A stretch of DNA of 64,000 nt from Minisyncoccia bacterium (GCA_039809245.1 JBDHUP010000002.1:11188-75187); one strand, 5' to 3'; positions 23,341-41,951 are shown, numbered from the stretch's first letter. Made by a program: numbers and translations. Notes: generated from the letters alone by a model not told the origin.

Positions 23341-23427
23341 GGAGGTGTGGCTGAGTGGTTGAAGGCACTTGTCTTGAAAACAAGAGACCGTTTACGCGGT
23401 CCGTGAGTTCGAATCTCACCGCCTCCG
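23341..23427 (+). tRNA. tRNA-Ser (anticodon TGA), long variable arm; integration target
   Basis: Manual cloverleaf; anticodon loop CTTGAAA; acceptor GGAGGTG/CGCCTCC. Confidence 0.85.
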
Positions 23428-23429
23428 CA
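23414..23429 (+). repeat. attL: 16-bp tctcaccgcctccgca (3' end of tRNA-Ser), exactly repeated at 41904-41919
   Basis: Exact match found by eye. Confidence 0.65.
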
Positions 23430-23500
23430 TTGACAACTTGGTAGATACATGACCTGATTACTTATGTAACTAGTGCGACCCACAAACCTATCAAGTTACA

Positions 23501-23530
23501 AAAAAGAGCGATTCATTTCGCTCTTTTTTG
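23501..23530 (-). terminator. Hairpin agagcgattcatttcgctct plus T-run; terminator of the 189-aa gene. A near-identical hairpin lies at 41925-41942
   Basis: Seen in sequence. Confidence 0.55.
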
Positions 23531-24162: not shown

Positions 24163-25542
24163 ATGAATAATATAAATGAAAGGTCTGTGGGAAATGCGAC
24201 CTTACCAAATAAACCACTTCCCGTTATTAAGTACTGTCTCTATGCTCGTAAATCAATGGAAGACGAAGAACGGCAAGCTTTGTCTATTGATTCACAGCTA
24301 AAAGAAATGAAGCAAATAGCAGAAAGAGATAATCTCTATGTCGCTACTATGCGAACAGAAGCTCACTCTGCAAAGAATTCTGGTCAACGTCCTGTCTTTA
24401 ATCAAATGATTGAAGAAATACGTGAGGGTAAATACAACGCAATTCTTACATGGAATCCAGATCGTTTAAGCAGAAATGCTGGCGATCTCGGTGTATTGGT
24501 TGATCTTATGGACAGTCAATTATTAGTTGAGATACGGACCTATAATCAAAAGTTTAGTAACTCACCGAATGAAAAGTTTTTACTCATGATACTTGGTTCT
24601 CAAGCAAAACTTGAGAATGACAATAAGAGTATTAATGTGAAGCGTGGTCTTCGTACCAAGGTTGAGATGGGATTATGGCCCACTGTTGCACCAACAGGAT
24701 ATCTAAACAACATGACTCGAGGCAAAGAGGGTCATGTGATTATCGATCCAATTCGTGCACACGTTGTAAAACAAATATTCCAACTCGCAGCAGAAGGCTG
24801 GAGTCATAGAAGAATCAGAAGATGGCTTCGTGATGATTTGGATTTCAGATCCAAAAACAATAAGCACTTGGCTATGAGTACGATACAGAAAATATTATGT
24901 ACTCCTTTCTATTATGGCGAGTTTGAGTTTCCTAGAAAAAGTGGCAATTGGTATAAAGGTATTCATACACCACTCATTACAAAAGAATTATATGATCAGG
25001 TGCGAGAGCAGACTGACGCAAAGAAAAGATTGCAATATGTGTACAAGAAAAACTTTGCCTATACCAAGTTAATGAAGTGTGGTTTGTGTGGTGGAAATGT
25101 TACCGCAGAGGAAAAGTTCAAGGCTCTCAAAGACGGATCTATCGCTCGATATGTTTACTATGGATGCACTCGATCCAAAGATCCATCATGTAAGATTAAA
25201 TATATTCGTGAGGAATATCTCATCCAATCACTTCGTGAGTTGGTTGATAAATTATCACTCGACGATCTTGGTTTGCGTGGTCAATTTGAGAAAGAGGTTG
25301 AACGTATCCACCGATTCAACTGTGATGTTATGGGCAAACCACCCATGTATACCGATTCTGAAGAGCAAGATGTTGATATTAAAAAGTATATTAAATACAT
25401 TCTTCTCGATGGTTCTATAGAAGAGAAACGAAACATACTCCTCAATCTGAAGAGTAAATTAATTCTCAAGGACGGCTTCGTTTATCTCGATGTTGTTACA
25501 GATGAAGACGAGAGTCTTATGCCTACTCCTGTAGGAGATTAA
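24163..25542 (+). CDS. Large serine recombinase (resolvase catalytic domain, recombinase domain, zinc ribbon, coiled coil)
   Basis: YARKS catalytic-serine motif, CGLCGG...C zinc ribbon, 459 aa. Confidence 0.85.
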   Translation: MNNINERSVGNATLPNKPLPVIKYCLYARKSMEDEERQALSIDSQLKEMKQIAERDNLYVATMRTEAHSAKNSGQRPVFNQMIEEIREGKYNAILTWNPDRLSRNAGDLGVLVDLMDSQLLVEIRTYNQKFSNSPNEKFLLMILGSQAKLENDNKSINVKRGLRTKVEMGLWPTVAPTGYLNNMTRGKEGHVIIDPIRAHVVKQIFQLAAEGWSHRRIRRWLRDDLDFRSKNNKHLAMSTIQKILCTPFYYGEFEFPRKSGNWYKGIHTPLITKELYDQVREQTDAKKRLQYVYKKNFAYTKLMKCGLCGGNVTAEEKFKALKDGSIARYVYYGCTRSKDPSCKIKYIREEYLIQSLRELVDKLSLDDLGLRGQFEKEVERIHRFNCDVMGKPPMYTDSEEQDVDIKKYIKYILLDGSIEEKRNILLNLKSKLILKDGFVYLDVVTDEDESLMPTPVGD

Positions 25543-26899
25543 TCCTTTTATCATTCAGCACTAGTCTACTTCTTAAGTGTCCCAGTAGCTCACGCTTCTC
25601 AAGCGGTGTACCTTCACGCAACACATACTTAGCATATTCCCGAGTATTCACATCATCTTCATTGATGCTGTATTTTGGTGTACCTTTTGTTGCTAGTCTC
25701 TGTAATCTATTGAATCGCTTGATTTCTTCTTCGAGTTTCATTCGCATACCCAACTCATTGATGCTTACCTTATCGATGACCTTAAATAATTCTTCGATCA
25801 GTTCTTCTTCTCGTATGTATTTGTTTTTACAATTCCTATCCTTGGACTTACTGCATGAATAGTAGACGTACTTTGCTGTTGTTCCATCTTTAAGTTCCTT
25901 ATATTTCTCTTGTGCTGTTATTCCTGATTCACACATCCCGCAGGTGAATAATTTAGTGAATGCAAACTCTCTATTTTCTCGCACTATCTTATCTCTCTTT
26001 AATCTATCTTGAGCCTTATCAAACAATTCCTTAGTGATCAACGGTTCGTGCGATCCTTGATACCACTGTCCTGAGTTTCGTGGATATTCAAATGGTCCGT
26101 AGTAGATTGGCATATCGAATATACGATAAACCCCCGACAGAGTCAGGGGTTTATTCCCTCGAGTATAGAAGTTCAAATCGAACCGTAACCAGTTATAGAC
26201 TTTTCTACCACTCCATCCTTCGAATGCAACTTTCTCAAACATCTGTTTTATGACATGAGCACGATCTGGATCGGGTATGATCTGACACTTCTTATCCATT
26301 CTTTTCTGATTGATGTATCCCAGCGGTGCCATTCCGGGCCAGAGACCTGATTCAACTCGGGTACGCAGTCCACGCTTCACATTGATACCTCGGTTATCGT
26401 TTTCGAGTTTAGCCTGACTTCCCAAAATCATCAGGAGGAATTTCTCGTTTGGATTGTTTGAAAATGTCTGACCGAATGTTCGTATCTGTAAAAGTTTTCC
26501 TGCATCCATCAAGTCCACAATTTTTCCAAGGTCTCCTGCGTTTCTACTGATACGGTCAGGTGCCCACGTGAGAATCGCATTATATTTACCATCTTTTATT
26601 TCTTCGATTATTTCATTGAATACTGGTCGCTGACCCGTTTCCTTTGCCGAATGGCTTTCTCTTTTCATTGCCACAATCTCCAAGCCCTCACGATCTGCCA
26701 ACTGAAGCATTTCTTTGATCTGGGAGTCGATAGAGAGGACTTGGCGTTCTTCTGACTCGCTCGATTTTCTGGCGTACAGACAATACTGTGTTTTTACGCT
26801 TTTAATATCTATTTGGGGCATCTCAAAGCCCTGTGGTGCTGTTATTTTCATACAACCCATTAATGACGCAGACCATTTGAGGAGTCTAGAGCGTCCCAT
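25523..26899 (-). CDS. Large serine recombinase, paralog of the preceding gene; convergent with a 20-bp 3' overlap
   Basis: CLYARKS motif, CGMC...C zinc ribbon; ~55-60% identity to the neighbour by eye; start probably at an internal Met (MKITAPQ or MPQIDIK). Confidence 0.85.
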   Translation of the reverse strand: MGRSRLLKWSASLMGCMKITAPQGFEMPQIDIKSVKTQYCLYARKSSESEERQVLSIDSQIKEMLQLADREGLEIVAMKRESHSAKETGQRPVFNEIIEEIKDGKYNAILTWAPDRISRNAGDLGKIVDLMDAGKLLQIRTFGQTFSNNPNEKFLLMILGSQAKLENDNRGINVKRGLRTRVESGLWPGMAPLGYINQKRMDKKCQIIPDPDRAHVIKQMFEKVAFEGWSGRKVYNWLRFDLNFYTRGNKPLTLSGVYRIFDMPIYYGPFEYPRNSGQWYQGSHEPLITKELFDKAQDRLKRDKIVRENREFAFTKLFTCGMCESGITAQEKYKELKDGTTAKYVYYSCSKSKDRNCKNKYIREEELIEELFKVIDKVSINELGMRMKLEEEIKRFNRLQRLATKGTPKYSINEDDVNTREYAKYVLREGTPLEKRELLGHLRSRLVLNDKRINLLQE

Positions 26900-26959: not shown

Positions 26960-28702
26960 ATGAAAACCTATGAACACTTGACTTTATATCTTGAATCTGA
27001 TAGACTCAAATTACAACATATGAGAAAAGATATACAAGAAAAACTTAAGGGGATGCCAGAATTACTCTCTATCGGTCAGGTAGCAGAGATTTTCTCTATC
27101 CACCAAGACACCCTACGAAACTGGGAAAAAGACGGAACACTCGTCCCTCTTAGAGTCGGACCACGAAAAGATCGAAAGTACCGCCCACAAGACATTGAAG
27201 CAATTGTCGACAAAATGGGTAGCAAATTGACCCTTCCTCAACTTGAATCGTTCCTCTGGAAGAGTGCTGACATTCTTCGAGGAAAAATCGACAGTTCTGA
27301 TTACAAGAAATATATCTTTGGTCTTCTTTTCTACAAGCGAATGAGTGACGTTTGGGATGAAGAGTTCAACGCTGTAATGAAAGAGTACGATGATAAAGAT
27401 ATCGCTCGTGCAGACTACAATCACCGTTTCCAAGTTCCTAAAGATTGTCGATGGGAAAAAATTACAGAGCAAGCAGAAAACATCGGACAAAAACTCAATG
27501 ATATTTTTGATAAATTAACCAATGCAAACAGTCCGAAACTAGATAAAATTTTTGATGACCTAGACTTTGCAAACAAAGACCGTTTTCCAAACGAAACACT
27601 TCAGCGACTGATCAATCACTTTTCTCAATACAACTTTGGTAATACTTACATCAGCTCTGATCTCCTTGGTGACGCATATGAATACCTGATCAAACAGTTT
27701 GCAGCGGATGCAGGTAAGAAAGGTGGAGAGTTCTACACGCCTCGTGAAGTTGAAAAAGTTATCGTGGGCATTCTAAAGCCACACCAGAAAGACCACATCT
27801 ACGATCCAACAGTTGGATCGGGTGGTTTCCTTTTGGAAGCATATGACTATTTGAAACAAAAGTCTGGTGAAAAGATCGCAAAGACTTTGTATCTATACGG
27901 TCAAGAACAAAACCTTGCAACCTTTGCGATTGCGAAAATTAACATGTTCCTCCACGGACTTGATAGTGCCGATATTCGCCGAGGTGACACATTGGCAAAT
28001 CCACAATTCCTTAATCAACAAGGAGGTCTTCAAACATTCGACATTGTAGTAGCTAATCCTCCGTACTCAATCAAAGACTATGAATGGGAGGCATTCAAGA
28101 ATAAGTTTGGTCGTTTGGAGGGATACGATGCACCACCCGAGAAAAATGCTGATTATGCTTTTGTCCTCCATATAATCAAATCAATGAACACTAATGGTCG
28201 TGCAGGTATTGTGTTGCCACACGGTGTCTTAACTCGAGGTAATGCTGAGGCACGAATCCGTGAACAAATACTTAAAAATGATCTTGTTGAGGCAATTGTT
28301 GCTCTACCATCAAAACTATTCTATGGGACAGGTATTCCTGCCGTAGTGGTTATCCTTAACAAAAACAAAGCTGAGGACAAGAAAAACAAGGTTTTGATTA
28401 TCGATGCCGAAAAAGATTTTCAGGAAGGCAAAAATCAAAATACTCTAAGACCTGCCGATATAAATAAGATTGTAAAAGCATTTAATGGATACGAGGATAT
28501 CGATAAATACGCATGTGTTGTAACATTGAAAGATATAGAGGAGAAAGATTTTAACCTTAATATCCGAGAGTACATTGATTCATCTGAAGAAGAGGAGGTT
28601 ATTGATGTGAAAAAAGTAAGAAGTGAAATTGCTTCACTTAAAAAAGAATTATCAAAAGCAGATGCTTTAGTTGAAAAGTATTTAGATGAGCTTGGCTATT
28701 AA
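26960..28702 (+). CDS. hsdM: Type I R-M N6-adenine DNA methyltransferase HsdM carrying an ~85-aa N-terminal excisionase/MerR-type HTH extension
   Basis: HsdM N-domain (LTLPQLESFLWKSADILRG), motif I DPTVGSGGFL, motif IV NPPYS; N-terminal LSIGQVAEIFSIHQDTLRNWEKDG HTH. Confidence 0.9.
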   Translation: MKTYEHLTLYLESDRLKLQHMRKDIQEKLKGMPELLSIGQVAEIFSIHQDTLRNWEKDGTLVPLRVGPRKDRKYRPQDIEAIVDKMGSKLTLPQLESFLWKSADILRGKIDSSDYKKYIFGLLFYKRMSDVWDEEFNAVMKEYDDKDIARADYNHRFQVPKDCRWEKITEQAENIGQKLNDIFDKLTNANSPKLDKIFDDLDFANKDRFPNETLQRLINHFSQYNFGNTYISSDLLGDAYEYLIKQFAADAGKKGGEFYTPREVEKVIVGILKPHQKDHIYDPTVGSGGFLLEAYDYLKQKSGEKIAKTLYLYGQEQNLATFAIAKINMFLHGLDSADIRRGDTLANPQFLNQQGGLQTFDIVVANPPYSIKDYEWEAFKNKFGRLEGYDAPPEKNADYAFVLHIIKSMNTNGRAGIVLPHGVLTRGNAEARIREQILKNDLVEAIVALPSKLFYGTGIPAVVVILNKNKAEDKKNKVLIIDAEKDFQEGKNQNTLRPADINKIVKAFNGYEDIDKYACVVTLKDIEEKDFNLNIREYIDSSEEEEVIDVKKVRSEIASLKKELSKADALVEKYLDELGY

Positions 28703-28708
28703 TACAAT

Positions 28709-30292
28709 ATGACTATTACTGATTACAAAACAGAAAGAGAGAATGATGTAAGTAAAATTAAGTCTTCTGTCCACCCTAAAAAGGTTGTCGTTGCAGGGCC
28801 TGGGACAGGTAAGAGTTTTTTGTTTCAAGAACTTATCAAAGAGAAGAAAAAGTCTGGTAAGACTGATTTTGTTGCTATTACATTCATAGGTAAATTAGGT
28901 GATGCACTTGCTGATGACCTCTGTGGTTTAGCTGAAACTATGACTATGCATGGTTTTGCGAGAAGATTTGTTCTAGAAAAGTGTAAGGGCTGGATTTATT
29001 ACCCTAGAATGTATGACATCATTAAAGCTGATTTAAAAAGCGAAGGTATTGATGATTTTGAAATTGGAGACGACAATTACAAAAAGAAAACTCTTTTTTA
29101 TAAAGCTGTTGGTGATGAAGATGTTGTTCATTACGCAATCCAGATATGTGAAAAGGACAAATCAAAGATTCCTACTCACGATTTAATATTAATTGATGAG
29201 TTCCAGGACTTTAATGAAAAAGAATCGCAATTTGTTGATTTGCTTGCTGAGAAAAATGAGATTGTGATAGTTGGCGATGACGATCAGGCACTCTATGAAT
29301 TCAAAGGCTCATCTCCAGCTTATATTAGAAGCAAACACCACACAAGCAATACAGATTTTGAAAGTCATACGTTGAGATTTTGTTCGAGATGTACTGATGT
29401 TGTGATTAAATATTTTCATGCTCTCGTGGAGAAATTTAACCTTAAAGATTCTACAAAAAATCGGATTGAAAAGGATTATATATGTTACGTGCCTGACAAA
29501 GAAAAAGATTCTAAAGCGAACCCACAAATACATCTTATAAAAAATTGCCCTAGTGGAATGATTGCTTTTAAGATAAGAGCTGAGTTAGAAAAACTTGTTA
29601 CCGAGCAAAAAATTAAAGACATTCTCATTATTGGTGAAGGAAGATCTTGCAAAGCTATCCTTGAATCGATAGCAAAGCAACTGAAACACTACGGATTTAA
29701 AAATGTAGATTACGGTAAATCTAATGGCTATCTAGATACTAAGCAGAATATTGTTGATGCTTATAAGTTCTTAGCGAATGATCCTGAGTCAGTTTTGGGT
29801 TGGCGAATACTTGATAATCCAACAGATCAAACTGAAAAAGAAAGGCATCTAAAAAATTCTAAGACCTTAAAAGTAATTATTTCAGGTAAATCTGCTGAGA
29901 TTAAAAAACTCAAAGATACTGCTATTGTCGAACTAGAAAAGACTATAGAAAATAATCACGTTGATGATCCCATCCTCAAGAGATCTGTTTTTATTGATGA
30001 ATTACGAGACCGAAACATTGTTCTCTCAAGACCCCTTGGAAACTTAAATATTACAGTATGCAATATTCTGAATTCGAAAGGACTTGGTGCTGATGTTGTA
30101 TTTTTGGTCGGATTTGACGATGGTAAATTTCCTGCAAAAAACATACCGACTGACAGCGAAATTTATCAAATGCTTGTTGCTATTACAAGATCGAAGAAGC
30201 GAATGTATCTCGTTAATACAACTGGAAAGAAAACATCAGTCTTTCTCGATTGCTTGGATGCCAGTGACTTAAGCACAAAAGAAATTAAGTAA
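28709..30292 (+). CDS. Compact UvrD/Rep-like SF1 helicase embedded between hsdM and hsdS
   Basis: Walker A AGPGTGKS, motif II LILIDEFQDFN, motif III VGDDDQALYEF, C-terminal motifs SKGLGADVVFLVG and VAITRSKKRMYL; 6 bp after hsdM, 1 bp before hsdS. Confidence 0.75.
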   Translation: MTITDYKTERENDVSKIKSSVHPKKVVVAGPGTGKSFLFQELIKEKKKSGKTDFVAITFIGKLGDALADDLCGLAETMTMHGFARRFVLEKCKGWIYYPRMYDIIKADLKSEGIDDFEIGDDNYKKKTLFYKAVGDEDVVHYAIQICEKDKSKIPTHDLILIDEFQDFNEKESQFVDLLAEKNEIVIVGDDDQALYEFKGSSPAYIRSKHHTSNTDFESHTLRFCSRCTDVVIKYFHALVEKFNLKDSTKNRIEKDYICYVPDKEKDSKANPQIHLIKNCPSGMIAFKIRAELEKLVTEQKIKDILIIGEGRSCKAILESIAKQLKHYGFKNVDYGKSNGYLDTKQNIVDAYKFLANDPESVLGWRILDNPTDQTEKERHLKNSKTLKVIISGKSAEIKKLKDTAIVELEKTIENNHVDDPILKRSVFIDELRDRNIVLSRPLGNLNITVCNILNSKGLGADVVFLVGFDDGKFPAKNIPTDSEIYQMLVAITRSKKRMYLVNTTGKKTSVFLDCLDASDLSTKEIK

Positions 30293-30293
30293 T

Positions 30294-31418
30294 ATGAATA
30301 ATCCTCTTAAACAAAAGAATATTCCGAAAGGATGGGAATACGGTTCTCTTGGAGATTTTATTGTAGATATTAAAGATGGAGGAACTCCTTCTAGGCGTAA
30401 AGGTGAATATTTTGGTGGTGGTATACCATGGGTTGTCATCAAAGATATAAAATCTAGAATTTACTCTACAAACGAAACCCTTTCTAAATTAGGCATTGAA
30501 AATTCAAGTGCTAAGGTTTTTCCTGCAGGCACAGTTATTTTATCATTTGGTGCAACGATTGGAGAAGTTGGTATCGCAGAAGTTGATTTAGCTACAAAGC
30601 AAGGTATTGCCGGAGTTTTGCCAGATGTTTCAAAAATTACAACTGAATATTTATATTTTTTATTACAATCTCAAAAAAAGTTACTCAATCAAATGGCTAC
30701 AGGAAGTACTATTAAGGAAGTACGTCCAAATATTATCAAGAAAATTAATATACTTGTCCCCCCAATAAAAGAGCAGAAGAAAATTGCTGATATTTTGTTA
30801 TCTGTTGATGAAGAGATTCAAAAGGTTGAAGAGATAATTTCCGCGACTGAAAAATTAAAAAAAGGGCTGATGTCAGGATTATTTACTAAAGGAATTGGTA
30901 ATAATAAATTTCAAAAAACAAGAATCGGAGATATATTAACTTTAGAATACGGCAAACCATTAAAAGCATCAGATAGAGTCTCTGGAGATATACCAGTTTT
31001 TGGTTCAAACGGTATAGTTGGATATCATGATACAAGCTTAGTAAAAGGACCTGGTGTTATTGTAGGAAGAAAAGGAGGGGCTGGAGAAGTGATGTTTTCA
31101 GAAGTAGATTTTTATCCCATAGATACAGCTTATTTTGTAAAAACGGATTTTAATAAAAAATTTATTTATTATTTATTAGTAAATACAAACTTAAAAAAGC
31201 GTTCCGGAGGTAGTGCTGTTCCTGGATTAAATAGAAATGACGCATATTCTAAAATAGTGATTCTTCCAAAAAAAGAAGGTCAAGAGATAATTGTAAACAT
31301 TTTATCTTCTGTAGATAGAAAAATTATTACTTGTCAGAAATTAAAAACAAAATTATTAGAACTTAAAAAGGGATTAGTGTCGGATCTCCTGAGTGGAAGT
31401 AAAAGAGTAAAAATATGA
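30294..31418 (+). CDS. hsdS: Type I R-M specificity subunit HsdS (two target-recognition domains)
   Basis: Duplicated TRDs with conserved repeats (PPIKEQKKIADIL / PKKEGQEIIVNIL). Confidence 0.85.
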   Translation: MNNPLKQKNIPKGWEYGSLGDFIVDIKDGGTPSRRKGEYFGGGIPWVVIKDIKSRIYSTNETLSKLGIENSSAKVFPAGTVILSFGATIGEVGIAEVDLATKQGIAGVLPDVSKITTEYLYFLLQSQKKLLNQMATGSTIKEVRPNIIKKINILVPPIKEQKKIADILLSVDEEIQKVEEIISATEKLKKGLMSGLFTKGIGNNKFQKTRIGDILTLEYGKPLKASDRVSGDIPVFGSNGIVGYHDTSLVKGPGVIVGRKGGAGEVMFSEVDFYPIDTAYFVKTDFNKKFIYYLLVNTNLKKRSGGSAVPGLNRNDAYSKIVILPKKEGQEIIVNILSSVDRKIITCQKLKTKLLELKKGLVSDLLSGSKRVKI

Positions 31419-32473
31419 AATTACTATTTTTAGATTCAAATATATTCCTTAATTTCTATGATTTTCATGATGAAGATCTAACTCAACTTGCGAAGTTGGT
31501 GGATGTAATAAAGGCTAAAGAAATAAAGCTCTTTTTGACTACTCAAGTTTGTGAGGAAATTAAGAAAAACAGAGAGGCTCGATTAAAGGTTGCGTATGAG
31601 AAAATCGTAGATTCAAAAGTAACTTTAGCTATTCCTCCTTTTTGTAAACACTACGATGAGTATTCTGATATTAAGCGTGCTCAAAATATTCTTGATCAAT
31701 TAAAATCTGAACTAAGTAAGAAACTTTGGGAAGATATACAAAATCACACACTACAAGCTGATAAAATTATTAACGACCTTATCAATGAGAGTAGTATAAT
31801 TGATTCAGATAAATATTTGCCTCAGGCAATACAAAGGCATCAATTAGGTAGACCGCCTGGAAAGAAAGATAGGAGTTATGGCGACGAGATTAACTGGGAG
31901 GCAATTTTAGCTGAAGTGTCTGGTGAGGGTGAATTTATACTTCTTAGTAAAGATGGCGACTATGCTCATGCAATAGATGATCAGTCGCTAAAAGACTATC
32001 TTGTTGATGAATGGAAGAAGAGTCATCCAGATAATGAAATATTTTTCTACAAAAGCTTAACTAAATTTTTCACTGAGCATGATATCAAGATCGAGTTGCG
32101 TATAGAACAGGAAAAAGATGAACTTGTTCGAGACTTGATTAACAGTCACAACTTCTTAAATACACACATTATAGTAAGTAGTCTCTCTAAATACAGTAGT
32201 TTTACAGATGATCAGGTAAGAGGTATAGCAAATGCTTTGAGTGAAAATAGTCAGGTTAGATGGATTATTGATGATGCCGATGTAAAGGAATTTTATAGAG
32301 ACAATCTTCTTCCTAGGTTAGACTTATTTGATTCCGAGACACAGCAAAGTATTAGAGGCTTAATTCAAGGTGAAGAAGTTGCGGATTTGTCTGCCGAATT
32401 GAATAATCTTGAAGAAAAACTTAAAGAAGAAAAAGATGAAGAAAGTGATAATGAAGAAGATATTCCATTTTAA
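31415..32473 (+). CDS. PIN-like domain protein (predicted nuclease) with acidic C-terminal tail, embedded between hsdS and hsdR
   Basis: Four spaced acidic positions in a PIN-like pattern (LFLDSNIF, TTQVCEEI, GDEINWEAIL, LLSKDGDY); ATGA overlap with hsdS, 9 bp before hsdR. Confidence 0.45.
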   Translation: MKLLFLDSNIFLNFYDFHDEDLTQLAKLVDVIKAKEIKLFLTTQVCEEIKKNREARLKVAYEKIVDSKVTLAIPPFCKHYDEYSDIKRAQNILDQLKSELSKKLWEDIQNHTLQADKIINDLINESSIIDSDKYLPQAIQRHQLGRPPGKKDRSYGDEINWEAILAEVSGEGEFILLSKDGDYAHAIDDQSLKDYLVDEWKKSHPDNEIFFYKSLTKFFTEHDIKIELRIEQEKDELVRDLINSHNFLNTHIIVSSLSKYSSFTDDQVRGIANALSENSQVRWIIDDADVKEFYRDNLLPRLDLFDSETQQSIRGLIQGEEVADLSAELNNLEEKLKEEKDEESDNEEDIPF

Positions 32474-32482
32474 CTAAACAAT

Positions 32483-35395
32483 ATGAAATTCAACGAATTA
32501 TATACAATAGAAAAACACGTTATAAAATTCATCCAAGAAAAACTTGGCTATGAGTTTATTCCTGCTGAAGAGTTTTCAAAACTTCGTGCTTTCGAAAACG
32601 AGGTTATTATCACTTCACACCTTATTGAATCTGTTCAAAAGATAAATGAGGTTGATGAAACTTTGGCTCAAAGTGTCGTTCGTGAGATCAAGAAACTTGA
32701 TACCAATGAAGCATTTTTACTTACGATGCGAAATGGTGTAAATCTTAAAGATCCTGCAACTGGCAAGAATCGTGATTTTCAGATTGTTGATTTTGATAAT
32801 GCCGACAACAACCGATTTGTTGTTACAAGTCAGTTCTACTTCGAGGGCACCACAGAAAACATTCGCCCTGACGTGATGATTTTCTTGAACGGTCTACCTA
32901 TCTCTGATATTGAAGCAAAAAGCCCCACCGCTTCTAGCTCGGTAAGCTTTGAGAATGCTATTGATCAGATCAAGCGATACGAAAAAGTTGCATCAAAACT
33001 ATTTCTCCCTAACTGCTTTAATATTGCAACAGACGGACTAAAAACAGTGTATGGAGCAACTTATTCTCCAAAGCAATACTTTTTGACTTGGCGAGAAGAT
33101 CCACATAGTGAATCAAAGATGTTTGAAGATGAGCTTGATTCAACACTCTACTTCCTATTTGAAAAAGAAAGACTCCTTGATGTCTTGAAGAACTTTATTG
33201 TATTTGAAAAGAAGAAAGACGGATCTATTAAAAAGATAGCTCGATATCAGCAACTGTACGCTTCTAATAAAATTGTAGAGAGAGTTAAGGATGGTGACCA
33301 TAAAAAAGGTCTTATTTGGCATACTCAAGGATCTGGAAAGACTCTGACCATGTTTTTTACTGCTTGGAAGCTTCGATATGCACCTGAGCTTAAAAACCCA
33401 AAGGTATTTATTCTCATCGACCGTATTGATCTTGATGATCAAGTATTTGAAGAGTTTGAAGCTTGGGGTGGTCAGAACCTCATTCGAGTTGAGTCTCGTA
33501 AGGATCTCGAAAAGAAAATCAAAGGTGCAGACCGAGGTATCTTTATTTCAACTATCCAGAAATTTACTGAACTAGAAGAAATTGAAAGTATTGATGGAAA
33601 TGTCATCGTTCTTTCTGATGAAGCCCACCGAGATAACGAGGGAGTATCTGCTATCAAGATGCGTAATGCATTTAAAGATGCGTTCTTCTTTGGGTTCACT
33701 GGAACTCCTATTGATAAACTAACTCTTAATACACACCGCAACTTTGGTGAAGATGGAGAGCGATATCTTGATTATTATTCTATTCAACAAGCTATTGATG
33801 ATGGTGCGACGTTGCCTGTTACCTATGAAGCTCGACTTTCTAAATTCTTTATTGACGAGGAAACCGTAGACAAAAAGTTCAATGAACTAACTACTGATCT
33901 GAGCAAAGAACAGAAAGAACTCCTTACAAAGAGGTACGGAAAGAAGGAAGCTCTGGTAAAGCTAGAGAAACGAATGGAAGCAGTCATTCAGGATATTGTT
34001 GAACATTACAAGCTGTATGTCCTTCCAAACGGGTTTAAAGCACAGATTGTGTGTTATGACCGAGAAGCAACAGCAAAGTATAAAGACTTGCTTGATAAGC
34101 TTGTGCCATCAGAATGGTCAGAAGTTGTATATTCTCCCGCTGATCCAAATAGTGATAGCGACGACCTAAAAAAATACAACACGAACAAACAAAAGCGAGA
34201 GAAGATTATTGAACAATTCAAAGACCCAACTCATCCTCTAAAGTTTCTACTTGTCTGTGACATGCTTTTGACTGGTTTTGATGCTCCAGTTGAACAGGTA
34301 ATGTACCTTGATAAGCCACTCCGAGACCATAATCTTCTACAAGCTATTGCTCGTACAAACCGTGTCTACCCAAACAAAGGGTGTGGAAAGATTATTGACT
34401 ACTATGGTGTGACTAAGAACCTCTATGATGCTCTCAATTTTGATGAGAGTGTGGTTGATAGTGCGATGATCAATATTGATAAGTTGAAAGAAGACTTCAA
34501 AAAGGTGCTTGATGAAGTCATGAGTCTTTTCGAGGGGGTTAATATTGAAGATCCTTCAATTGAAAACCTTCGTCGATGTCTCAAGATATTTATCGACAAT
34601 CAAAGCAAACAACAATTCTTCAAAGACAAATATGGTCGTCTAAAGATGTTGTTTGAGATACTTTCTCCCGATCCATTCCTTATTGAGTATCTACGCAAAT
34701 TTGAGTGGATTACCAGTTTCTATCTTGCTTTTAGTAAAGAATTTCAACCAGAAGGAGTTGATGCGTTTTCTCTTGCTGAATACGGAGAGAAAATCAAAAA
34801 CCTTATCCAAGACAAGATTGATTATGAGGGAATCACTAAGAATTTCCGTGAGCTATCGGTACACGATCTCGCTACACTTAACAAACTAGACAAACTTCCT
34901 GATGAAGATAAGGCTCTTAATCTTGAAAAGATGCTTAAACGTGAGATCTCTATCAACATAGACACACACCCAGCATTTAAAGGATTTGGTGAGCGACTTT
35001 CCTCAATTAGACAAGAGTTTGAGAAACATCAGATTGATCTTGCTGAACGTATCAAGCGTTACTACGAACTTCTGAACGATATCAAGACCAAAACTGAAGA
35101 AGCAAAGGAACTTGGTTATTCTCTCCATGAATACGGACTCTTTGTAATTTCTGAGGAATTCATTAGCGAATCAGATCAAGCGGTTATAAAAGAATTCATC
35201 AAGGAAATGTCATCTCGATTGGAGGATGTTCTTGATGAGGGATGGCAAAACTCATCAAAGCGTGAGGAGTTTATAAAAGAAGCCAAGAGAACATTGCAGG
35301 AGTTAATTCTTAAAGACTACAAGAACAAGATTCAGATTTCTGACTTCCAAAAATATCTCAATCGTTTGATTGATGTAGTTATTAAAAAATTCTAA
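32483..35395 (+). CDS. hsdR: Type I R-M restriction subunit HsdR (SF2 translocase/endonuclease)
   Basis: 970 aa; Walker A HTQGSGKTLT, DEAH-box VLSDEAHR, helicase motif VI QAIARTNR. Confidence 0.9.
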   Translation: MKFNELYTIEKHVIKFIQEKLGYEFIPAEEFSKLRAFENEVIITSHLIESVQKINEVDETLAQSVVREIKKLDTNEAFLLTMRNGVNLKDPATGKNRDFQIVDFDNADNNRFVVTSQFYFEGTTENIRPDVMIFLNGLPISDIEAKSPTASSSVSFENAIDQIKRYEKVASKLFLPNCFNIATDGLKTVYGATYSPKQYFLTWREDPHSESKMFEDELDSTLYFLFEKERLLDVLKNFIVFEKKKDGSIKKIARYQQLYASNKIVERVKDGDHKKGLIWHTQGSGKTLTMFFTAWKLRYAPELKNPKVFILIDRIDLDDQVFEEFEAWGGQNLIRVESRKDLEKKIKGADRGIFISTIQKFTELEEIESIDGNVIVLSDEAHRDNEGVSAIKMRNAFKDAFFFGFTGTPIDKLTLNTHRNFGEDGERYLDYYSIQQAIDDGATLPVTYEARLSKFFIDEETVDKKFNELTTDLSKEQKELLTKRYGKKEALVKLEKRMEAVIQDIVEHYKLYVLPNGFKAQIVCYDREATAKYKDLLDKLVPSEWSEVVYSPADPNSDSDDLKKYNTNKQKREKIIEQFKDPTHPLKFLLVCDMLLTGFDAPVEQVMYLDKPLRDHNLLQAIARTNRVYPNKGCGKIIDYYGVTKNLYDALNFDESVVDSAMINIDKLKEDFKKVLDEVMSLFEGVNIEDPSIENLRRCLKIFIDNQSKQQFFKDKYGRLKMLFEILSPDPFLIEYLRKFEWITSFYLAFSKEFQPEGVDAFSLAEYGEKIKNLIQDKIDYEGITKNFRELSVHDLATLNKLDKLPDEDKALNLEKMLKREISINIDTHPAFKGFGERLSSIRQEFEKHQIDLAERIKRYYELLNDIKTKTEEAKELGYSLHEYGLFVISEEFISESDQAVIKEFIKEMSSRLEDVLDEGWQNSSKREEFIKEAKRTLQELILKDYKNKIQISDFQKYLNRLIDVVIKKF

Positions 35396-35397
35396 CT

Positions 35398-35967
35398 ATG
35401 AAAAAGCATATAGAACTTCACAAAAGAAAAGTTCCATATACGCTCAAAGTAAGTAAGCGAGCAAAAAGACTCCGCCTCGCAATTTATTGTGATGGTGCTT
35501 TTGTTGTGACCACTCCTCGAAATGTTGAGGTTTCAGTTATTGAGAAATTCATCATACAAAGATCTCAGTGGGTTATCGATAAGTTAGATTACTTCAGCCA
35601 ATTCTCTGATGTATTCAAAAAGAAGAATACTCAAGCAGAATATTTGAAGTACAAAGAAGAGGCTCTATCTTTAGCCGAGAAAAAGGTTAAGAAATTCAAT
35701 AAGATTTACAAATTCTCTTACAACAAGATTAATATCAAAAATCAAAAGACTCGCTGGGGTAGCTGTTCTAAAAAAGGTAACCTTAATTTCAACTATAAAA
35801 TTGCGTTGTTGCCTGAACGTCTTGCTGAGTACATAGTCGTACACGAACTCTGCCACCTTGGACAATTTAATCACTCTCAGAAGTTTTGGAATTTGGTAGC
35901 CAAGGCTATACCTGACTATCTAGAGATCAAGGAGGAGTTAAAAAGAAGTGGTTTAAGATTTCATTAA
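35398..35967 (+). CDS. DUF45/COG1451 (YgjP-like) zinc metallohydrolase, a known companion of Type I R-M operons
   Basis: HELCHL...H metal-binding motif near the C-terminus; 2 bp after hsdR. Confidence 0.65.
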   Translation: MKKHIELHKRKVPYTLKVSKRAKRLRLAIYCDGAFVVTTPRNVEVSVIEKFIIQRSQWVIDKLDYFSQFSDVFKKKNTQAEYLKYKEEALSLAEKKVKKFNKIYKFSYNKINIKNQKTRWGSCSKKGNLNFNYKIALLPERLAEYIVVHELCHLGQFNHSQKFWNLVAKAIPDYLEIKEELKRSGLRFH

Positions 35968-35968
35968 T

Positions 35969-36214
35969 ATGGATGACTGGAGCTTCAACATACCCAAAAA
36001 GATTTTGAGAGTATTATTGATTGGTGCAGTCATACTTGCTGTTCTCTACGGGGTTTTTACTGGTGACTCAAAGAAAGGTGCTGATTTTTATATGAAGGAG
36101 GTTAAATTTATTATGACTCCAATAATAAATAAAATGCAAAATCGTATGGAAAAGATATTCGATAGAGCACTTAATAAAACTCAAGAGAACCAGAGTGAGA
36201 ATGTCGAAAACTAA
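35969..36214 (+). CDS. Small single-TM protein
   Basis: 81 aa ORF, 1 bp after the preceding gene. Confidence 0.3.
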   Translation: MDDWSFNIPKKILRVLLIGAVILAVLYGVFTGDSKKGADFYMKEVKFIMTPIINKMQNRMEKIFDRALNKTQENQSENVEN

Positions 36215-37701
36215 CCGAACAATATTCCACCTGAAACTGGATTATTCTCAATAATTTTAAGAACCACGATGGAAAAAGCGTCAGCTAAGTCATCGTGTTT
36301 TTCTTTTCCAAATCCAAGAAGTTGCTCGATTAATTCTTCACAACCGCTTTCAGGAAATAAAATGCGTCCGTCCTTTAACAATGGAGTCGTGAGTCGTAAT
36401 CGTGCACCTTTGTCGTTTCTTCCTGTTGGCACACCCTCAATGTCATACTTTTGACTCTCAAAGAATTGGATCAATGCTTTTTGATATCCAACATCTTCCA
36501 CAAAAAGTTTTACCCGATTGTGTTTCATTTTCTCGGTTGCCACCAACGCTTTGATAAATTCTGCGTGTACAGGAAATGAACTCCTTTTGTTATAAGGATG
36601 CTTTTGAATATAGATTTTCATATTTTTCCCTGTGCCGTATACATATGCAACGACAATAGCGGTGCAGTCAGCTGAATCTTTTTCACTTACCGCCAAATCG
36701 ATACCTATACAGATACTTCTAAATCCATCGGCAGGCATTTTGTCATAGAATGTGATCCATTCAGGCAAGACAATCTGCTCGTCAGTCGCAATGATCTGAA
36801 GCATATACTCACGAAACCACGCAACATCATCCATAGTTTTTTCTCGCTCAGCTTCAACATCTTCTGGAGCAGGATACTTGCCGGGCCATAAAGGATTGCC
36901 CTTGGGATCAACAATAGGATATTCACGGTATACAGCCTTAATGCGACTCATTTCACCATTTTCGATTTTCTTTTGTAGTCGCTTCAGCACAGAGTCCTCA
37001 TGAAGTAAGTTACCCACAGCAATGATTCTCGTTTTCTTGGTTCCTGCAGGGATTACTTCACTTACAAGCCAGTTGAATGTTTTATCACGACCAACACGAG
37101 TTTTAACCGATTGGGTATCTTCAATGTCGTCTATGATAATAAGGTCGGGGCGATGTTGATCGTGTCTTACTCCACGGATGCTTTGCTCTACAGAGCTGAT
37201 CATAATCTTCACATTGAGTCTCTTGATAATGAGTGCCGTAGCATTACCGAGATTGTTCTTTTCTTCTTCAAAAGGTCCAAGGTCTTTTCGCAGAAGGTCA
37301 TTATTTAAAAGCTGACTTTTTATATTCAAAAGATACTGCCGTGCTTTTTGCTCAGTTTGACCACAAATAACAATAAGCTTTCTTTGCTGTATACCGAGGA
37401 TAGACCATAGGACATACGCTGTTGAAATGATGGTTGATTTTGCTAAACCACGGAATGCAACAAACACTGCAAGTTTAATGCGATCATCTTCAAGAATACG
37501 AAACATCTCCTCGTGAAAGGGTGCTGTCTCATACTCCATGTATTGGTGAAAATATATTGGGAAAAAGAATTCAAAACTATTTTGTACAGTATGTTTTCGT
37601 ACTGTTTGATCAATAAGAATTTTCTCAAAAATATCTTCACTATTCCTTTGTGTCTTTAAACTTGGCATGTTTGCGTAATGATGAAAGTTTGAGTGCGGCA
37701 C
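36211..37701 (-). CDS. Phage terminase large subunit (ATPase plus RNase-H-like nuclease)
   Basis: Walker A-like RGLAKST, Walker B DLIIIDD, C-terminal nuclease acidic residues (IGIDLAVSEKDSAD). Confidence 0.75.
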   Translation of the reverse strand: MPHSNFHHYANMPSLKTQRNSEDIFEKILIDQTVRKHTVQNSFEFFFPIYFHQYMEYETAPFHEEMFRILEDDRIKLAVFVAFRGLAKSTIISTAYVLWSILGIQQRKLIVICGQTEQKARQYLLNIKSQLLNNDLLRKDLGPFEEEKNNLGNATALIIKRLNVKIMISSVEQSIRGVRHDQHRPDLIIIDDIEDTQSVKTRVGRDKTFNWLVSEVIPAGTKKTRIIAVGNLLHEDSVLKRLQKKIENGEMSRIKAVYREYPIVDPKGNPLWPGKYPAPEDVEAEREKTMDDVAWFREYMLQIIATDEQIVLPEWITFYDKMPADGFRSICIGIDLAVSEKDSADCTAIVVAYVYGTGKNMKIYIQKHPYNKRSSFPVHAEFIKALVATEKMKHNRVKLFVEDVGYQKALIQFFESQKYDIEGVPTGRNDKGARLRLTTPLLKDGRILFPESGCEELIEQLLGFGKEKHDDLADAFSIVVLKIIENNPVSGGILFG

Positions 37702-38071
37702 GAATGAGCTTCTTTTCTTCTTTCGTCAGAGGCTTTTCTTTTGATTCAATACTTCCTGAAAGCTCAAGTTTGTTGCTGTACCGTGGATTGTGAGTTGAGA
37801 GATATAACCGAATAGCCTCTATCTTTCTCTCACTAATCAGAGCAAAGAGTTGGTTCTCAGCAACATCTGACATAAATTTTCTACCCTCGTTAAGAGACTC
37901 ATCAATTTGCCGTTCAAACTTCTTACTATTCGCAATCCATCGATAAACCGTAGCTCGTGATACACCAACTTTTTGACAGGAAGTTTCAAGAGTGGGCGTA
38001 CGCTTGAGCTGGTCGAGCAAAGCTTCTTTGATACGCGATTGCCTTTGTTGTATTGAATCTTTTCTACTCAT
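37640..38071 (-). CDS. Terminase small subunit-like HTH protein
   Basis: N-terminal HTH (VGVSRATVYRW) typical of phage TerS; immediately upstream of terL. Confidence 0.45.
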   Translation of the reverse strand: MSRKDSIQQRQSRIKEALLDQLKRTPTLETSCQKVGVSRATVYRWIANSKKFERQIDESLNEGRKFMSDVAENQLFALISERKIEAIRLYLSTHNPRYSNKLELSGSIESKEKPLTKEEKKLIRAALKLSSLRKHAKFKDTKE

Positions 38072-38826
38072 AGTTTTTCTGCTTTGACTCCAGACAGCTT
38101 TTCAAAACGATCAATGACTGTTTGACAGTATTCAATATCCATCTCGACTCCGATGCATATACGCTTTGTCTGCTCGCACGCAAGCAATGTTGTACCTGAA
38201 CCTAGAAACCCATCAAAAACCACATCTCCGATCCGTGTACTATTTAGTACAAGTCTACGAATAAGATCGATTGGCTTTGTCGATGGATGCATTTTGCTTT
38301 TATTTGGTTTTGGACAAACCAAGACACTCTTGTCTTTTGATTTCAAAAACTCATGTGTGCCATGCCACCCGTATGCGATTAGTTCATGTTGAGGTGCATA
38401 GTCCATACGACCGATGACTGCATGAGTTTTCACCCAAATGAGAAGTTGTCCAAATTTAAGACCTGCTTCGTGCATTCCTTCACGCAAAGCAAATACCATC
38501 TTGTCTGAATTAAAGATATAAAAGCTATTTTTACGATCAAGGTGGGGTCTAATAGCCTCAATCCAATCACGGGTGAAAGTTTTATATTCCAGATCGCTTT
38601 GTAAGTGATCGTTGAGTATTGGTTTATTCTTGGCGAGTGTCTGAAATCCTTCCTTACTTTCAGCTACGGCTACTCCATAGGGTGGGTCAGAGATTACTGC
38701 TTTGATTTTGTGTGTACTAACAAGCCTTGCGATCATATCCTTGTTTCGTGAATCTGCACACAAAAGCAAATGCTGTCCTAACCGAAATGCATCGCCGTAT
38801 TTAATTGAGCTTTGTGACTTTTTCAT
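38068..38826 (-). CDS. DNA methyltransferase (beta-class N6A/N4C, DPPY)
   Basis: Motif IV SDPPYG precedes motif I FLGSGTT. Confidence 0.8.
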   Translation of the reverse strand: MKKSQSSIKYGDAFRLGQHLLLCADSRNKDMIARLVSTHKIKAVISDPPYGVAVAESKEGFQTLAKNKPILNDHLQSDLEYKTFTRDWIEAIRPHLDRKNSFYIFNSDKMVFALREGMHEAGLKFGQLLIWVKTHAVIGRMDYAPQHELIAYGWHGTHEFLKSKDKSVLVCPKPNKSKMHPSTKPIDLIRRLVLNSTRIGDVVFDGFLGSGTTLLACEQTKRICIGVEMDIEYCQTVIDRFEKLSGVKAEKL

Positions 38827-40078
38827 TGGATATTTTCTTAAATCTATTAATAATTACCTGACAGAAAACTGGTTCAATTTCTGCAAGGAATGCTCGACGT
38901 TTAAGTGCTTCACAGGCAACCAGAATACTCCCTGATCCAGCCGTCAGATCAAGAATCGTATCACCAGGTTTACTACACCGTCTGATGCTTTTTTCGTATA
39001 AAGTCGGTGGCTTCATTGTCGGATGCTGATATTCAGAACTAGGCAGTCTTTTCGCAAGCCATATCTGGAACATGTCCGAAATATCATCAAGTAATCTATT
39101 ACCAGAGGATATTTCCTTATTCTGAAATTCAGTCAGATTCTTAACTTTGTCAGATAGATAGGGCTTACCTCGAACTCCATACATACAAAGCTCTACGGCA
39201 CGATTAAAAGCGATTTTAGGGGTTGGATTATGTTGAGACTTTGCCCACAAACAGAGTCGTTTGAAATCAATACCTACTGCTTTGAAAACATCCTGCATCA
39301 TCCCTAGGTATTTCTCATCCAGCCATGCAAAAGCATGGCAATCGTTCTTCGATACCCCCAGTGCGTTTTTTAAGATACTTGCAAGAAACTCCTTGTACTC
39401 AGCATCTGATTTTTTATCATTGATAGTTCCTCCGTAGTTCTGCTTGCCACCTAATCCCGCCGAGTAATCTACGCCTATGTTATATGGAAAATCTATATTG
39501 ATGAGATCTATCCGCTCAGAACCCACTAGCTCTGTAACGGTTTCTTTTTTAGTACTATCTCCACAAATTAAAACGTGACTCCCGAGTGAAAATTTATCAC
39601 CCAATTTAATGTCAGTTTTTTGAGCTTCCTTGAGTTCCTTTTCAAGATCAATATCATCGTCATCTACTTCGAGGTTGTCATCGAAAATATTAGAAAGATC
39701 GAATGAATCAAAACCCGCAGTAAGGAGTTCGTCGAGATCAAAATCTCGTGCAAGCTTTTCAAAATCCCAAGACGCACCGCTTCGATTTGAGGTGAGTAGG
39801 TAATCTTTAAATTCTTTTTCTGTAAGAGTTCTGTTTGGAACTCTTACCTCTATTTCTTCATCTTCTCGACCAAGAAGAGACAAGACCATCACTCGTTGGT
39901 TTCCAGCAACCAGAGTGCCGTCTGTGTTGATACACGGCAATTCTGCCAGATCAAATTTCTTGAGACTTCGCTTGAGTCCCTCAAGTTGTGTAGGCGAAAG
40001 TTTGCGAGGATTCTTTTCGTATCGAATCAAATCCTTCACTTTACGTTTCTCCGTATGCCAAACTAATTTTTTGCTCAT
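38801..40078 (-). CDS. ParB-like nuclease domain fused to a DNA methyltransferase
   Basis: N-terminal ParB/Srx-like segment (EKNPRKLSPTQLEGLKRSLKKF...AGNQR), C-terminal MTase motifs (DFPYN, LTAGSGS). Confidence 0.75.
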   Translation of the reverse strand: MSKKLVWHTEKRKVKDLIRYEKNPRKLSPTQLEGLKRSLKKFDLAELPCINTDGTLVAGNQRVMVLSLLGREDEEIEVRVPNRTLTEKEFKDYLLTSNRSGASWDFEKLARDFDLDELLTAGFDSFDLSNIFDDNLEVDDDDIDLEKELKEAQKTDIKLGDKFSLGSHVLICGDSTKKETVTELVGSERIDLINIDFPYNIGVDYSAGLGGKQNYGGTINDKKSDAEYKEFLASILKNALGVSKNDCHAFAWLDEKYLGMMQDVFKAVGIDFKRLCLWAKSQHNPTPKIAFNRAVELCMYGVRGKPYLSDKVKNLTEFQNKEISSGNRLLDDISDMFQIWLAKRLPSSEYQHPTMKPPTLYEKSIRRCSKPGDTILDLTAGSGSILVACEALKRRAFLAEIEPVFCQVIINRFKKISNEKVTKLN

Positions 40079-40877: not shown

Positions 40878-41594
40878 ATGGGGACGATTCAAGAATGTAT
40901 CTTTTGTAAAAGCACAACCAACTCATTCAATAGTGTTGAGCATATTTTTCCTGAGTCGCTTGGTAACAAAGAGAAGATTTTAGATAAGGGATTCGTTTGT
41001 GATACTTGTAATAATGAAGTTCTCTCTGGGCTAGATGCTGAGCTTCTTGATTTTGAGGGGATCAAATTCATGAGAGTCATGAATGGAATTGAAAGTAAAT
41101 CTGGGAAAGTTCCTGTTGCTAATTTTCCGAATCTAAAAATAGAAAACCCTAACAAGGATCACATCAAAGTACATCTTCAAACCATGAAGCATGTACGAGA
41201 TCAAAGCGATACGGGTTTCAAACTAGATTTTCGTGGCACAAGAAAAATGGATACGAAACGATTAAAACTTCTTGCGAGGTCTTTGTATAAGATTGGATAT
41301 GAATTAGTGTGTCTTGATCACGGACGAGATTTTGTCCTGTCGCCACGGTTTGATGAGGTGCGAGATATCATCCTCGGTAAAAAGGACTTTAATGGTTACA
41401 TACTCATGGGGAGTAACGAAAAATCAGAAAATCCTAGAGTCAGTTATTATCCACTCAAAGACGACAAAGGTAGAGAGTTTATGGCTTTTGACTTTGTATA
41501 TCTATTCGTACGATTTATCTTCGATATGGAGCGAAGAGAGGCTTTGCTAGAAGCTGGTACAAAACTTGAGCGTATGACCGTCATGAAGTTTTAG
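40878..41594 (+). CDS. HNH-family endonuclease-like protein
   Basis: CxxC (CIFCK) ... EHIFPESLGN ... CDTCNN arrangement. Confidence 0.5.
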   Translation: MGTIQECIFCKSTTNSFNSVEHIFPESLGNKEKILDKGFVCDTCNNEVLSGLDAELLDFEGIKFMRVMNGIESKSGKVPVANFPNLKIENPNKDHIKVHLQTMKHVRDQSDTGFKLDFRGTRKMDTKRLKLLARSLYKIGYELVCLDHGRDFVLSPRFDEVRDIILGKKDFNGYILMGSNEKSENPRVSYYPLKDDKGREFMAFDFVYLFVRFIFDMERREALLEAGTKLERMTVMKF

Positions 41595-41903: not shown

Positions 41904-41919
41904 TCTCACCGCCTCCGCA
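41904..41919 (+). repeat. attR: second copy of the 16-bp tRNA-Ser 3' end
   Basis: Exact match to 23414-23429. Confidence 0.65.
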
Positions 41920-41943
41920 AAAAAAGAGCGATTAATCGCTCTT
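41919..41943 (-). terminator. Hairpin agagcgattaatcgctct with A/T-run flanks; terminator of the VOC gene
   Basis: Seen in sequence. Confidence 0.5.
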
Positions 41944-41951
41944 TTTCTTTT

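Follow-up and report, generated by a model that had tools for sequence, protein, structure and literature searches.

Why should a complete Type I restriction-modification (R-M) operon carry a gene for a DNA helicase between its methyltransferase gene and its specificity gene? The question is raised by a 64,000-nucleotide stretch of DNA from a Minisyncoccia bacterium (GCA_039809245.1 JBDHUP010000002.1:11188-75187; the whole stretch is called the window), in which a compact superfamily 1 (SF1) helicase is encoded between hsdM and hsdS. We hold, with moderate confidence, that the helicase is exchangeable defence cargo and not a subunit of the R-M enzyme. Two observations carry this reading. The slot between hsdM and hsdS has sharp boundaries and is filled by different genes in otherwise near-identical operons, and the helicase clade has passed from one unrelated R-M system to another, with no conserved partner gene. 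The helicase gene, its main motifs, and the exchanged segment are as follows.

28709-30292, + strand: compact UvrD/Rep-like SF1A helicase of 527 aa, the cargo of slot 1 (the hsdM/hsdS interval), with an ATG start and a TAA stop
28793-28816, + strand: Walker A (motif I) AGPGTGKS, residues 29-36, with G30, G32, G34, and K35 invariant or nearly so in 127 relatives
29195-29209, + strand: motif II DEFQD, residues 163-167, invariant in 127 relatives and aligned with DEYQD of UvrD
29273-29287, + strand: motif III GDDDQ, residues 189-193, invariant in 126-127 of the 127 relatives
28721-32471, + strand: variable operon segment (helicase, hsdS, and PIN gene), flanked by conserved backbone DNA

The exchange at this slot was seen in sister islands, which were recovered via look-ups of three HsdM proteins of the same lineage, distinguished by an N-terminal MerR-type helix-turn-helix (HTH) domain (MerR-HsdM). 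Loci L249, L250, L251, and L253 have a common backbone of two serine recombinases, MerR-HsdM (94% identity), hsdS, hsdR, a YgjP gene, an 81-aa open reading frame (ORF), and TerL. Their hsdM/hsdS interval holds ThsB-TIR, PDC-M50A, and a second ThsB, and no helicase; the PADLOC scores for this TIR cassette (L249:9748-11365) were 1.1e-73, 5.2e-41, and 2.6e-64, respectively. At L252 (HsdM 85%), slot 1 is empty and hsdS directly follows hsdM, and a gene for an unknown protein of 447 aa precedes hsdR. When the window was compared with L249 and L253 by blastn, an identity of 87-91% ended at 28720 and resumed at 32472-32482; the homology is lost 11 nt past the start of the cargo ORF and picks up again at the ATG of hsdR. 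The point of exchange falls no further than ~12 nt into the cargo ORF; the short junction sequence ACAATATG is conserved.

The interval between hsdS and hsdR (slot 2) carries unrelated genes in L082, L096, L098, L001, and L252 and is empty in the TIR variants. Outside the window, the products of slot 2 include unrelated proteins of 292, 305, and 449 aa and a pair of 397 and 152 aa, and no Pfam match was obtained for the slot-2 proteins of the other loci. Further embedded neighbours matched the PADLOC candidate families PDC-S05 (1.5e-142) and, weakly, PDC-S32 (1.6e-4). A split nuclease-helicase pair formed by the helicase and the PIN protein of the window was considered and rejected, as PIN_12 was found in the window alone and slot 2 is occupied by unrelated genes elsewhere.

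The HsdM lineage comprises more than 120 clusters at ≥83% identity, against two helicase clusters at ≥90% identity (the next at 71%), which indicates that most operons of this HsdM lineage are without the helicase. The records of these MerR-HsdM clusters came from Parcubacteria, Portnoybacteria, Cytophagaceae, and a Methanoregula (archaeal) metagenome-assembled genome (MAG), a distribution that implies either very recent and wide horizontal spread or binning errors.

The second line of evidence comes from the relatives of the helicase, most of which were from Patescibacteria MAGs. For 80 loci from species-representative genomes, with 143 immediate neighbour proteins, all-versus-all clustering of the neighbours revealed no conserved partner gene; the commonest neighbours were R-M components, each accounting for just 5-7 of the 143 proteins. 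The close clade was defined by a score of at least 700 bits (~59-95% identity), with 17 non-redundant loci having at least 4 kb of flanking sequence. The first-pass annotation of this locus would have been undermined if homologues were never linked to R-M genes. The linkage proved recurrent: R-M genes of three types adjoin the helicase at 15 of these 17 loci. Eleven loci are embedded in Type I operons, usually in the order hsdM-helicase-hsdS. Two adjoin Type II systems in tight operons, namely, L086 (RadC, helicase, MutH-like nuclease, and Dcm) and L094 (helicase, a 145-aa ORF, and a DpnII cluster), and two adjoin Type III-like systems (L083 and L101). No R-M gene was in view at the remaining two (L088 and L104), with none within 7 kb at L088. 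In the intermediate group, 7 of 15 loci were R-M-adjacent.

Judged by sequence identity, conservation is higher for the helicase than for the R-M systems that host it, and the two are incongruent. Between the window and L092, the helicase is 71% identical, with HsdM at 39% and HsdR at 33%; the corresponding values for the helicase and HsdM are 63% and 27% at L003, and 66% and 28% at L107. At L096, the helicase (64%) is accompanied by HsdM and HsdR of 75% and 71% identity. The R-M contexts are interleaved in the helicase tree. Taken with the identity contrasts, this indicates transfer of the helicase among four or more deeply divergent Type I lineages, with each transfer ending between hsdM and hsdS. 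The helicase-hsdS junction is direct (≤4 nt or overlapping) in 9 of 13 Type I-embedded loci. The genes are co-directional with a spacing of 0-8 nt in the Type I operons and L086, and the arrangement is looser beside the Type III-like system of L083.

Small ORFs following the helicase in L092 and L094 were tried as a common partner and rejected, as they are mutually unrelated and the other embedded ORFs are likewise without similarity. A RadC-like (JAB) gene was observed upstream of the helicase at L086 (L086:6338-6997, just 3 nt from the helicase), L083 (L083:5869-6330), L111, and L136, upstream of the helicase-containing R-M operon at L107 (L107:820-1482), and downstream at L091. Integrase and Phage_rep_O genes, too, lie near some of the homologues.

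The cargo itself appears to be a working motor. The position of the 527-aa ORF between hsdM and hsdS was confirmed, with the hsdS ATG 1 nt after its stop, and the core SF1 motifs were found at the places previously assigned to them. More than 740 homologues were retrieved, many at 55-70% identity and the best at E = 0, which places the ORF far beyond chance. The Pfam matches were UvrD-helicase (6.5e-18), AAA_19 (1.3e-17), and UvrD_C (5.4e-07). Membership of SF1A is indicated by motifs I, Ia, II (DExQD), III (GDxxQ), IV (Arg), V, and VI, all of which are intact: Ia reads AITF; the wider stretch around II reads LILIDEFQDFN (residues 159-169); IV reads FCSRC with R227; V reads SKGLGAD (residues 456-462); and VI reads VAITRSKKR (residues 490-498). 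The motifs are invariant across an alignment of 22 sequences. Among 127 unique members of the family, the most distant at 28% identity, the motifs are again invariant, with a few Walker A and Ia positions nearly so, and the activity is thus under selection. Degenerate motifs had been named as the sign of an inactive pseudo-helicase; the motifs are non-degenerate, and the ATPase/helicase core is intact and under purifying selection.

Motif IV has C-S-R-C (residues 225-228; 29381-29392) where N-Y-R-S is usual; across the 127 family members, C225 is invariant and 116 also have C228. A four-cysteine metal cluster was rejected, as C314 and C451 are conserved in the close clade only and there is no family-wide site of four cysteines.

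The family comprises 317 clusters at 50% identity with E ≤ 1e-30, from 1.84 billion representatives, and the full-length proteins among its 150 best matches listed are nearly all of 540-620 aa. Every annotation source and library searched gave the helicase only a generic helicase/ATPase label; in PADLOC it matched no specific PADLOC/PDC family, just the general GajB and RTasHel models. A search of 2.9 million viral contigs returned a single close relative, the remaining matches being generic UvrD, and an origin as a phage replication gene was rejected on this basis.

The shortness of the protein, ~200 aa below UvrD or PcrA, had been attributed to loss of the accessory 1B and 2B domains. The AlphaFold2 model (predicted local distance difference test score of 82.7) does not bear this out. 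The fold is UvrD/Rep-like, with two RecA-like domains (1A and 2A) and an accessory subdomain inserted in each, and both inserts are kept: a four-helix 1B (~residues 80-149) and a smaller, all-helical 2B (~340-440). In a profile alignment with D. radiodurans UvrD, residues 132-243 corresponded to UvrD 192-307 and residues 448-505 to UvrD 565-628. The deficit of ~200 aa is spread over three places, with ~60 aa missing before motif II, ~53 aa between motifs IV and V, and ~95-115 aa in the C-terminal tail. The 1B and 2B subdomains are therefore trimmed and not lost, and the C-terminal tail is absent. After motif VI, where we take the separation pin of UvrD to sit, a linker of just ~5 residues leads to a conserved S-x-F, and the model has no beta-hairpin there; the sequence and the predicted secondary structure suggest that the helicase probably lacks this pin, as does GajB.

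The Type I R-M system around the helicase is genuine and complete. Its other genes are listed below.

26960-28702, + strand: hsdM with an N-terminal MerR-type HTH (residues ~35-85); Pfam N6_Mtase (3.8e-108), HsdM_N, and MerR_1 (2.5e-08); TIGR00497 above its cutoff
30294-31418, + strand: hsdS with two target-recognition domains; Pfam Methylase_S (1.3e-45) in two stretches; PADLOC Specificity_I (1.5e-81)
31415-32473, + strand: PIN_12 protein of 352 aa, the slot-2 cargo of the window (hsdS/hsdR interval); Pfam PIN_12 (5.8e-19), with its C-terminal part matching the PADLOC candidate PDC-S34 (3.3e-15)
32483-35395, + strand: hsdR; TIGR00348 (5.2e-166); Pfam HSDR_N, SWI2_SNF2, and a T1R_D3-like domain
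35398-35967, + strand: YgjP-like metallopeptidase; Pfam YgjP-like (7.1e-44)
35969-36214, + strand: ORF of 81 aa at the operon end with no family match; an 81-aa gene lies at the equivalent place in L249, L250, L251, and L253

The seven genes are co-directional (hsdM, helicase, hsdS, PIN_12 gene, hsdR, YgjP-like gene, and 81-aa ORF). The hsdM stop (28700-28702) lies 6 nt ahead of the helicase ATG, and the helicase stop (30290-30292) 1 nt ahead of the hsdS ATG at 30294. From the latter spacing, the first-pass annotation took translation to be probably coupled. The spacing is not exceptional. The other junctions are a 4-nt overlap (hsdS-PIN), 9 nt (PIN-hsdR), 2 nt (hsdR-YgjP), and 1 nt (YgjP-81-aa ORF), and with every junction at ≤9 nt, the tightness is a property of the whole operon. 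Scans for consensus promoters and terminators inside the operon gave no more matches than in shuffled sequence, and isolation of the helicase by internal promoters or terminators was discarded accordingly. The HsdM of L082, L096, and L249-L253 also has an N-terminal domain of the MerR/HTH_17 type, and this domain may be a built-in controller of the operon. The YgjP-like gene downstream of hsdR is conserved in L001, L082, L092, L096, L098, and L249-L253.

With this layout, the helicase would be co-transcribed and probably co-translated with hsdM and hsdS, and so made whenever the R-M system is made. As exchangeable cargo, it would most likely be a single-gene anti-phage or anti-plasmid factor. 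It may act as an ATP-driven translocase on single-stranded DNA or DNA ends, recognising the replication intermediates of an invader or the ends made by restriction; it could then strip or unwind the invader DNA, leading to its destruction, or burn nucleotides like GajB, and might thereby complement or amplify the surrounding restriction system. A role as a modular defence component has precedents in the UvrD-like proteins GajB, type II Gabija, and DarH. The presence of embedded neighbours in PADLOC candidate families (PDC-S34, PDC-S05, PDC-M50, and, weakly, PDC-S32) also fits a framework of guilt by embedding. At no fewer than 11 non-redundant Type I-embedded loci, the helicase lies on the same strand between defence-system genes; it has homologues away from this host system as well, and ThsB/PDC-M50 genes occupy the equivalent slot. 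Co-occurrence with hsdM, hsdS, and hsdR is not obligate: sister operons with HsdM of 85-94% identity have no helicase, and the clade is found outside Type I systems.

Several points weigh against the reading as defence cargo. The defence role is proposed from genomic context; there is no obvious effector, as the helicase has no nuclease or toxin partner; and only the general GajB and RTasHel models of PADLOC match it. In the distant group (<450 bits), R-M genes lie within 4.5 kb at just 17 of 78 loci (22%), and more distant members (~50-55% identity) lie among housekeeping genes such as uvrB, thrS, and an ornithine decarboxylase gene, away from any R-M system; a strict link to defence therefore does not hold for the whole family. 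Finally, the R-M adjacency of the close clade could mean a real functional dependence on restriction.

That dependence is the substance of the alternative that survives best, which we consider unlikely though credible: the helicase would be a general restriction enhancer that loads on the ends or nicks produced by Type I, II, and III enzymes, so that by its unwinding or translocation the cleaved invader is degraded and left unrepaired. In reduced genomes such as those of Patescibacteria, it would substitute for end processing of the RecBCD/AddAB type. The adjacency of 15 of 17 close-clade loci to three R-M types argues for this alternative, as do the tight co-directional placement (0-8 nt in Type I operons and L086), the recurrence of the hsdM/hsdS position in four or more Type I lineages that are deeply divergent, and the absence of a conserved nuclease partner of its own. 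GajB offers a precedent, being described as a UvrD-like sensor of DNA termini made by a partner nuclease (10.1101/2023.05.02.539174). Set against these are L088, a close-clade member with no R-M nearby, the distant members in housekeeping contexts, and the unrelated defence cassettes in the slot of sister operons, as independent cargo predicts. In its broadest form, which we hold only tentatively, the clade would be an unrecognised class of restriction co-factor, a stand-alone SF1A motor serving any adjoining restriction enzyme (Type I, II, or III). Such a motor would engage restriction-made ends or nicks and turn one cut into irreversible destruction or nucleotide depletion, which would explain both the absent effector and the repeated landing between hsdM and hsdS in unrelated Type I systems.

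It is improbable that the helicase is a gene for the maintenance of the mobile element (island replication, transfer, or establishment) or for anti-restriction, hitch-hiking in the R-M operon. Two serine integrases and TerL/TerS are present on the island, and RadC, integrase, and Phage_rep_O genes occur near some homologues. These mobile-element neighbours vary while the R-M adjacency persists, the helicase is nearly absent from viral contigs, and the same island backbone exists without the helicase, which is thus not needed for island maintenance.

Still less do we favour a dedicated accessory subunit of the Type I enzyme, coupled to HsdS translation and assembling with HsdM and HsdS. The gaps of 1 nt to hsdS and 6 nt from hsdM would suit such a subunit, as would the direct helicase-hsdS junction in most Type I-embedded loci; all the junctions of the operon are equally tight, HsdR already provides a motor, and the R-M system is complete. 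The functional coupling to HsdS/HsdM that the first-pass annotation implied is also contradicted by near-identical operons on the same backbone, in which a 94%-identical HsdM accompanies the TIR cassette or, at L252, an 85%-identical HsdM adjoins an empty slot. The same clade is found, moreover, with R-M systems of Type II or Type III, or with none.

An orphan GajB of Gabija or a housekeeping UvrD/PcrA paralogue is very improbable: the best PADLOC matches were GajB models (9.4e-27, and 3.5e-21 over the full length) and the fold is UvrD/Rep-like, yet a scan of ten window ORFs at 24.2-37.7 kb gave no GajA (OLD-family ATPase-TOPRIM nuclease), the 25 families most frequent among the 143 immediate neighbours included none of OLD, AAA_15, AAA_21, and TOPRIM, and the helicase scored 45-55 bits against the NCBIfam equivalogs of housekeeping UvrD, PcrA, Rep, and helicase IV, whose cutoffs are 543-1144.

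The reading as exchangeable defence cargo can be set beside known systems. PrrC of the prr locus lies between hsdS and hsdR, the position equivalent to that of the slot-2 PIN gene. Operons of the Type I R-M, BREX, DISARM, and Hma kinds have all been reported to harbour embedded defence genes, and embedding has been used for discovery (Payne et al. 2024, bioRxiv 10.1101/2024.01.29.577857); TgvAB of V. cholerae VPI-2 is a characterised defence example inside a Type I operon (PMC11411939). The helicase resembles PrrC, TgvAB, and the PADLOC HEC-PDC candidates in being a same-orientation gene within a Type I R-M operon that also occurs outside this host, and its slot holds other defence cassettes in sister operons. 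It differs from embedded defence genes in that the cargo consists of a UvrD-like helicase alone, lacking any nuclease or toxin domain and outside the PADLOC candidate families, and in its strong preference for the hsdM/hsdS junction across divergent Type I lineages.

The likeness to GajB lies in a compact SF1A protein of ~500 aa with the UvrD-like layout of four subdomains, in the best PADLOC hidden Markov model matches, and in the short linker after motif VI with no hairpin in the model, which suggests that the separation pin is absent. For GajB, no unwinding was detected, and it was reported to be without the UvrD separation pin (PMC10681800). DarH (of DarHTG) and the GajB of type II Gabija (GajB-GajC) are UvrD-like motors acting as modular defence add-ons, with Walker A required for defence (PMC13069673). 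These two pair with a dedicated toxin or nuclease (DarT or GajC), whereas the only recurrent neighbours of the helicase are complete R-M systems. With E. coli Rep, UvrD, and PcrA, it shares the fold and all seven helicase motifs; it is ~120-200 aa shorter, with trimmed 1B/2B and no C-terminal tail, falls far below the equivalog cutoffs, and is island-borne and R-M-embedded. The first-pass annotation called the arrangement unusual. This holds for the helicase family, which has not been described as such cargo, and not for the carriage of defence genes in Type I R-M operons, which is established. Full-text literature searching turned up no account of this helicase in the hsdM/hsdS position. What is new relative to known systems is a bare UvrD/Rep-like helicase as single-gene cargo, the close clade of which is almost exclusively associated with three R-M types.

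The operon is carried by a putative mobile island, the remaining features of which are listed below.

23414-23429, + strand: putative attL, the left copy of a 16-nt direct repeat (TCTCACCGCCTCCGCA), at the 3' end of tRNA-Ser(TGA) (23341-23428)
24163-25542, + strand: large serine recombinase 1; Pfam Resolvase, Recombinase, and Zn_ribbon_recom; phrog_95 integrase (2.5e-66)
25523-26899, - strand: large serine recombinase 2, divergent from hsdM; Pfam match; phrog_95 (8.1e-63)
36211-37701, - strand: TerL-like gene; phrog_38 terminase large subunit (1.2e-80)
37640-38071, - strand: TerS-like gene; phrog_24579 terminase small subunit (1.4e-10)
41904-41919, + strand: putative attR, the right copy of the 16-nt repeat (TCTCACCGCCTCCGCA), exact and followed by a copy of a terminator-like hairpin

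The two repeats, as putative att sites, bound an island of ~18.5 kb integrated at tRNA-Ser; by our own arithmetic, ~0.07 exact 16-mer repeats are expected in 25 kb. The terminator-like hairpin is duplicated (23500-23529 and 41920-41949), and an Rfam scan of the window returned tRNAs only. No capsid, portal, or tail matches were seen among the island ORFs scanned, and the island is either satellite-like or a prophage remnant. Recombinase 2 is conserved upstream of hsdM in L082, L092, L096, and L249-L253, and a divergent recombinase gene at this place is shared by most of the related Type I loci. The two recombinases of the window are paralogous and convergent, with their 3' ends overlapping by 20 nt, and at L093 an additional half-hsdS separates the recombinase from hsdM. 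At its distal end (38068-40078, - strand, and 40878-41594, + strand), the island of the window carries a tandem pair of N6_N4 DNA methyltransferases (252 and 425 aa) as well as an HNH_5 protein; no cognate restriction gene for the two methyltransferases is in view.

Type I R-M operons have come to be seen as docking sites for other immune genes, and the slot described here is an unusually clear instance from nature. Its boundaries are sharp to the nucleotide, and in mobile operons that are otherwise near-identical it contains the helicase, contains a TIR cassette, or is empty; these operons have reached Patescibacteria, Bacteroidota, and even an archaeal MAG. Should the helicase prove to be defensive, it would be a minimal immune gene consisting of a helicase alone; should it depend on restriction, it would represent a generic enhancer of restriction.

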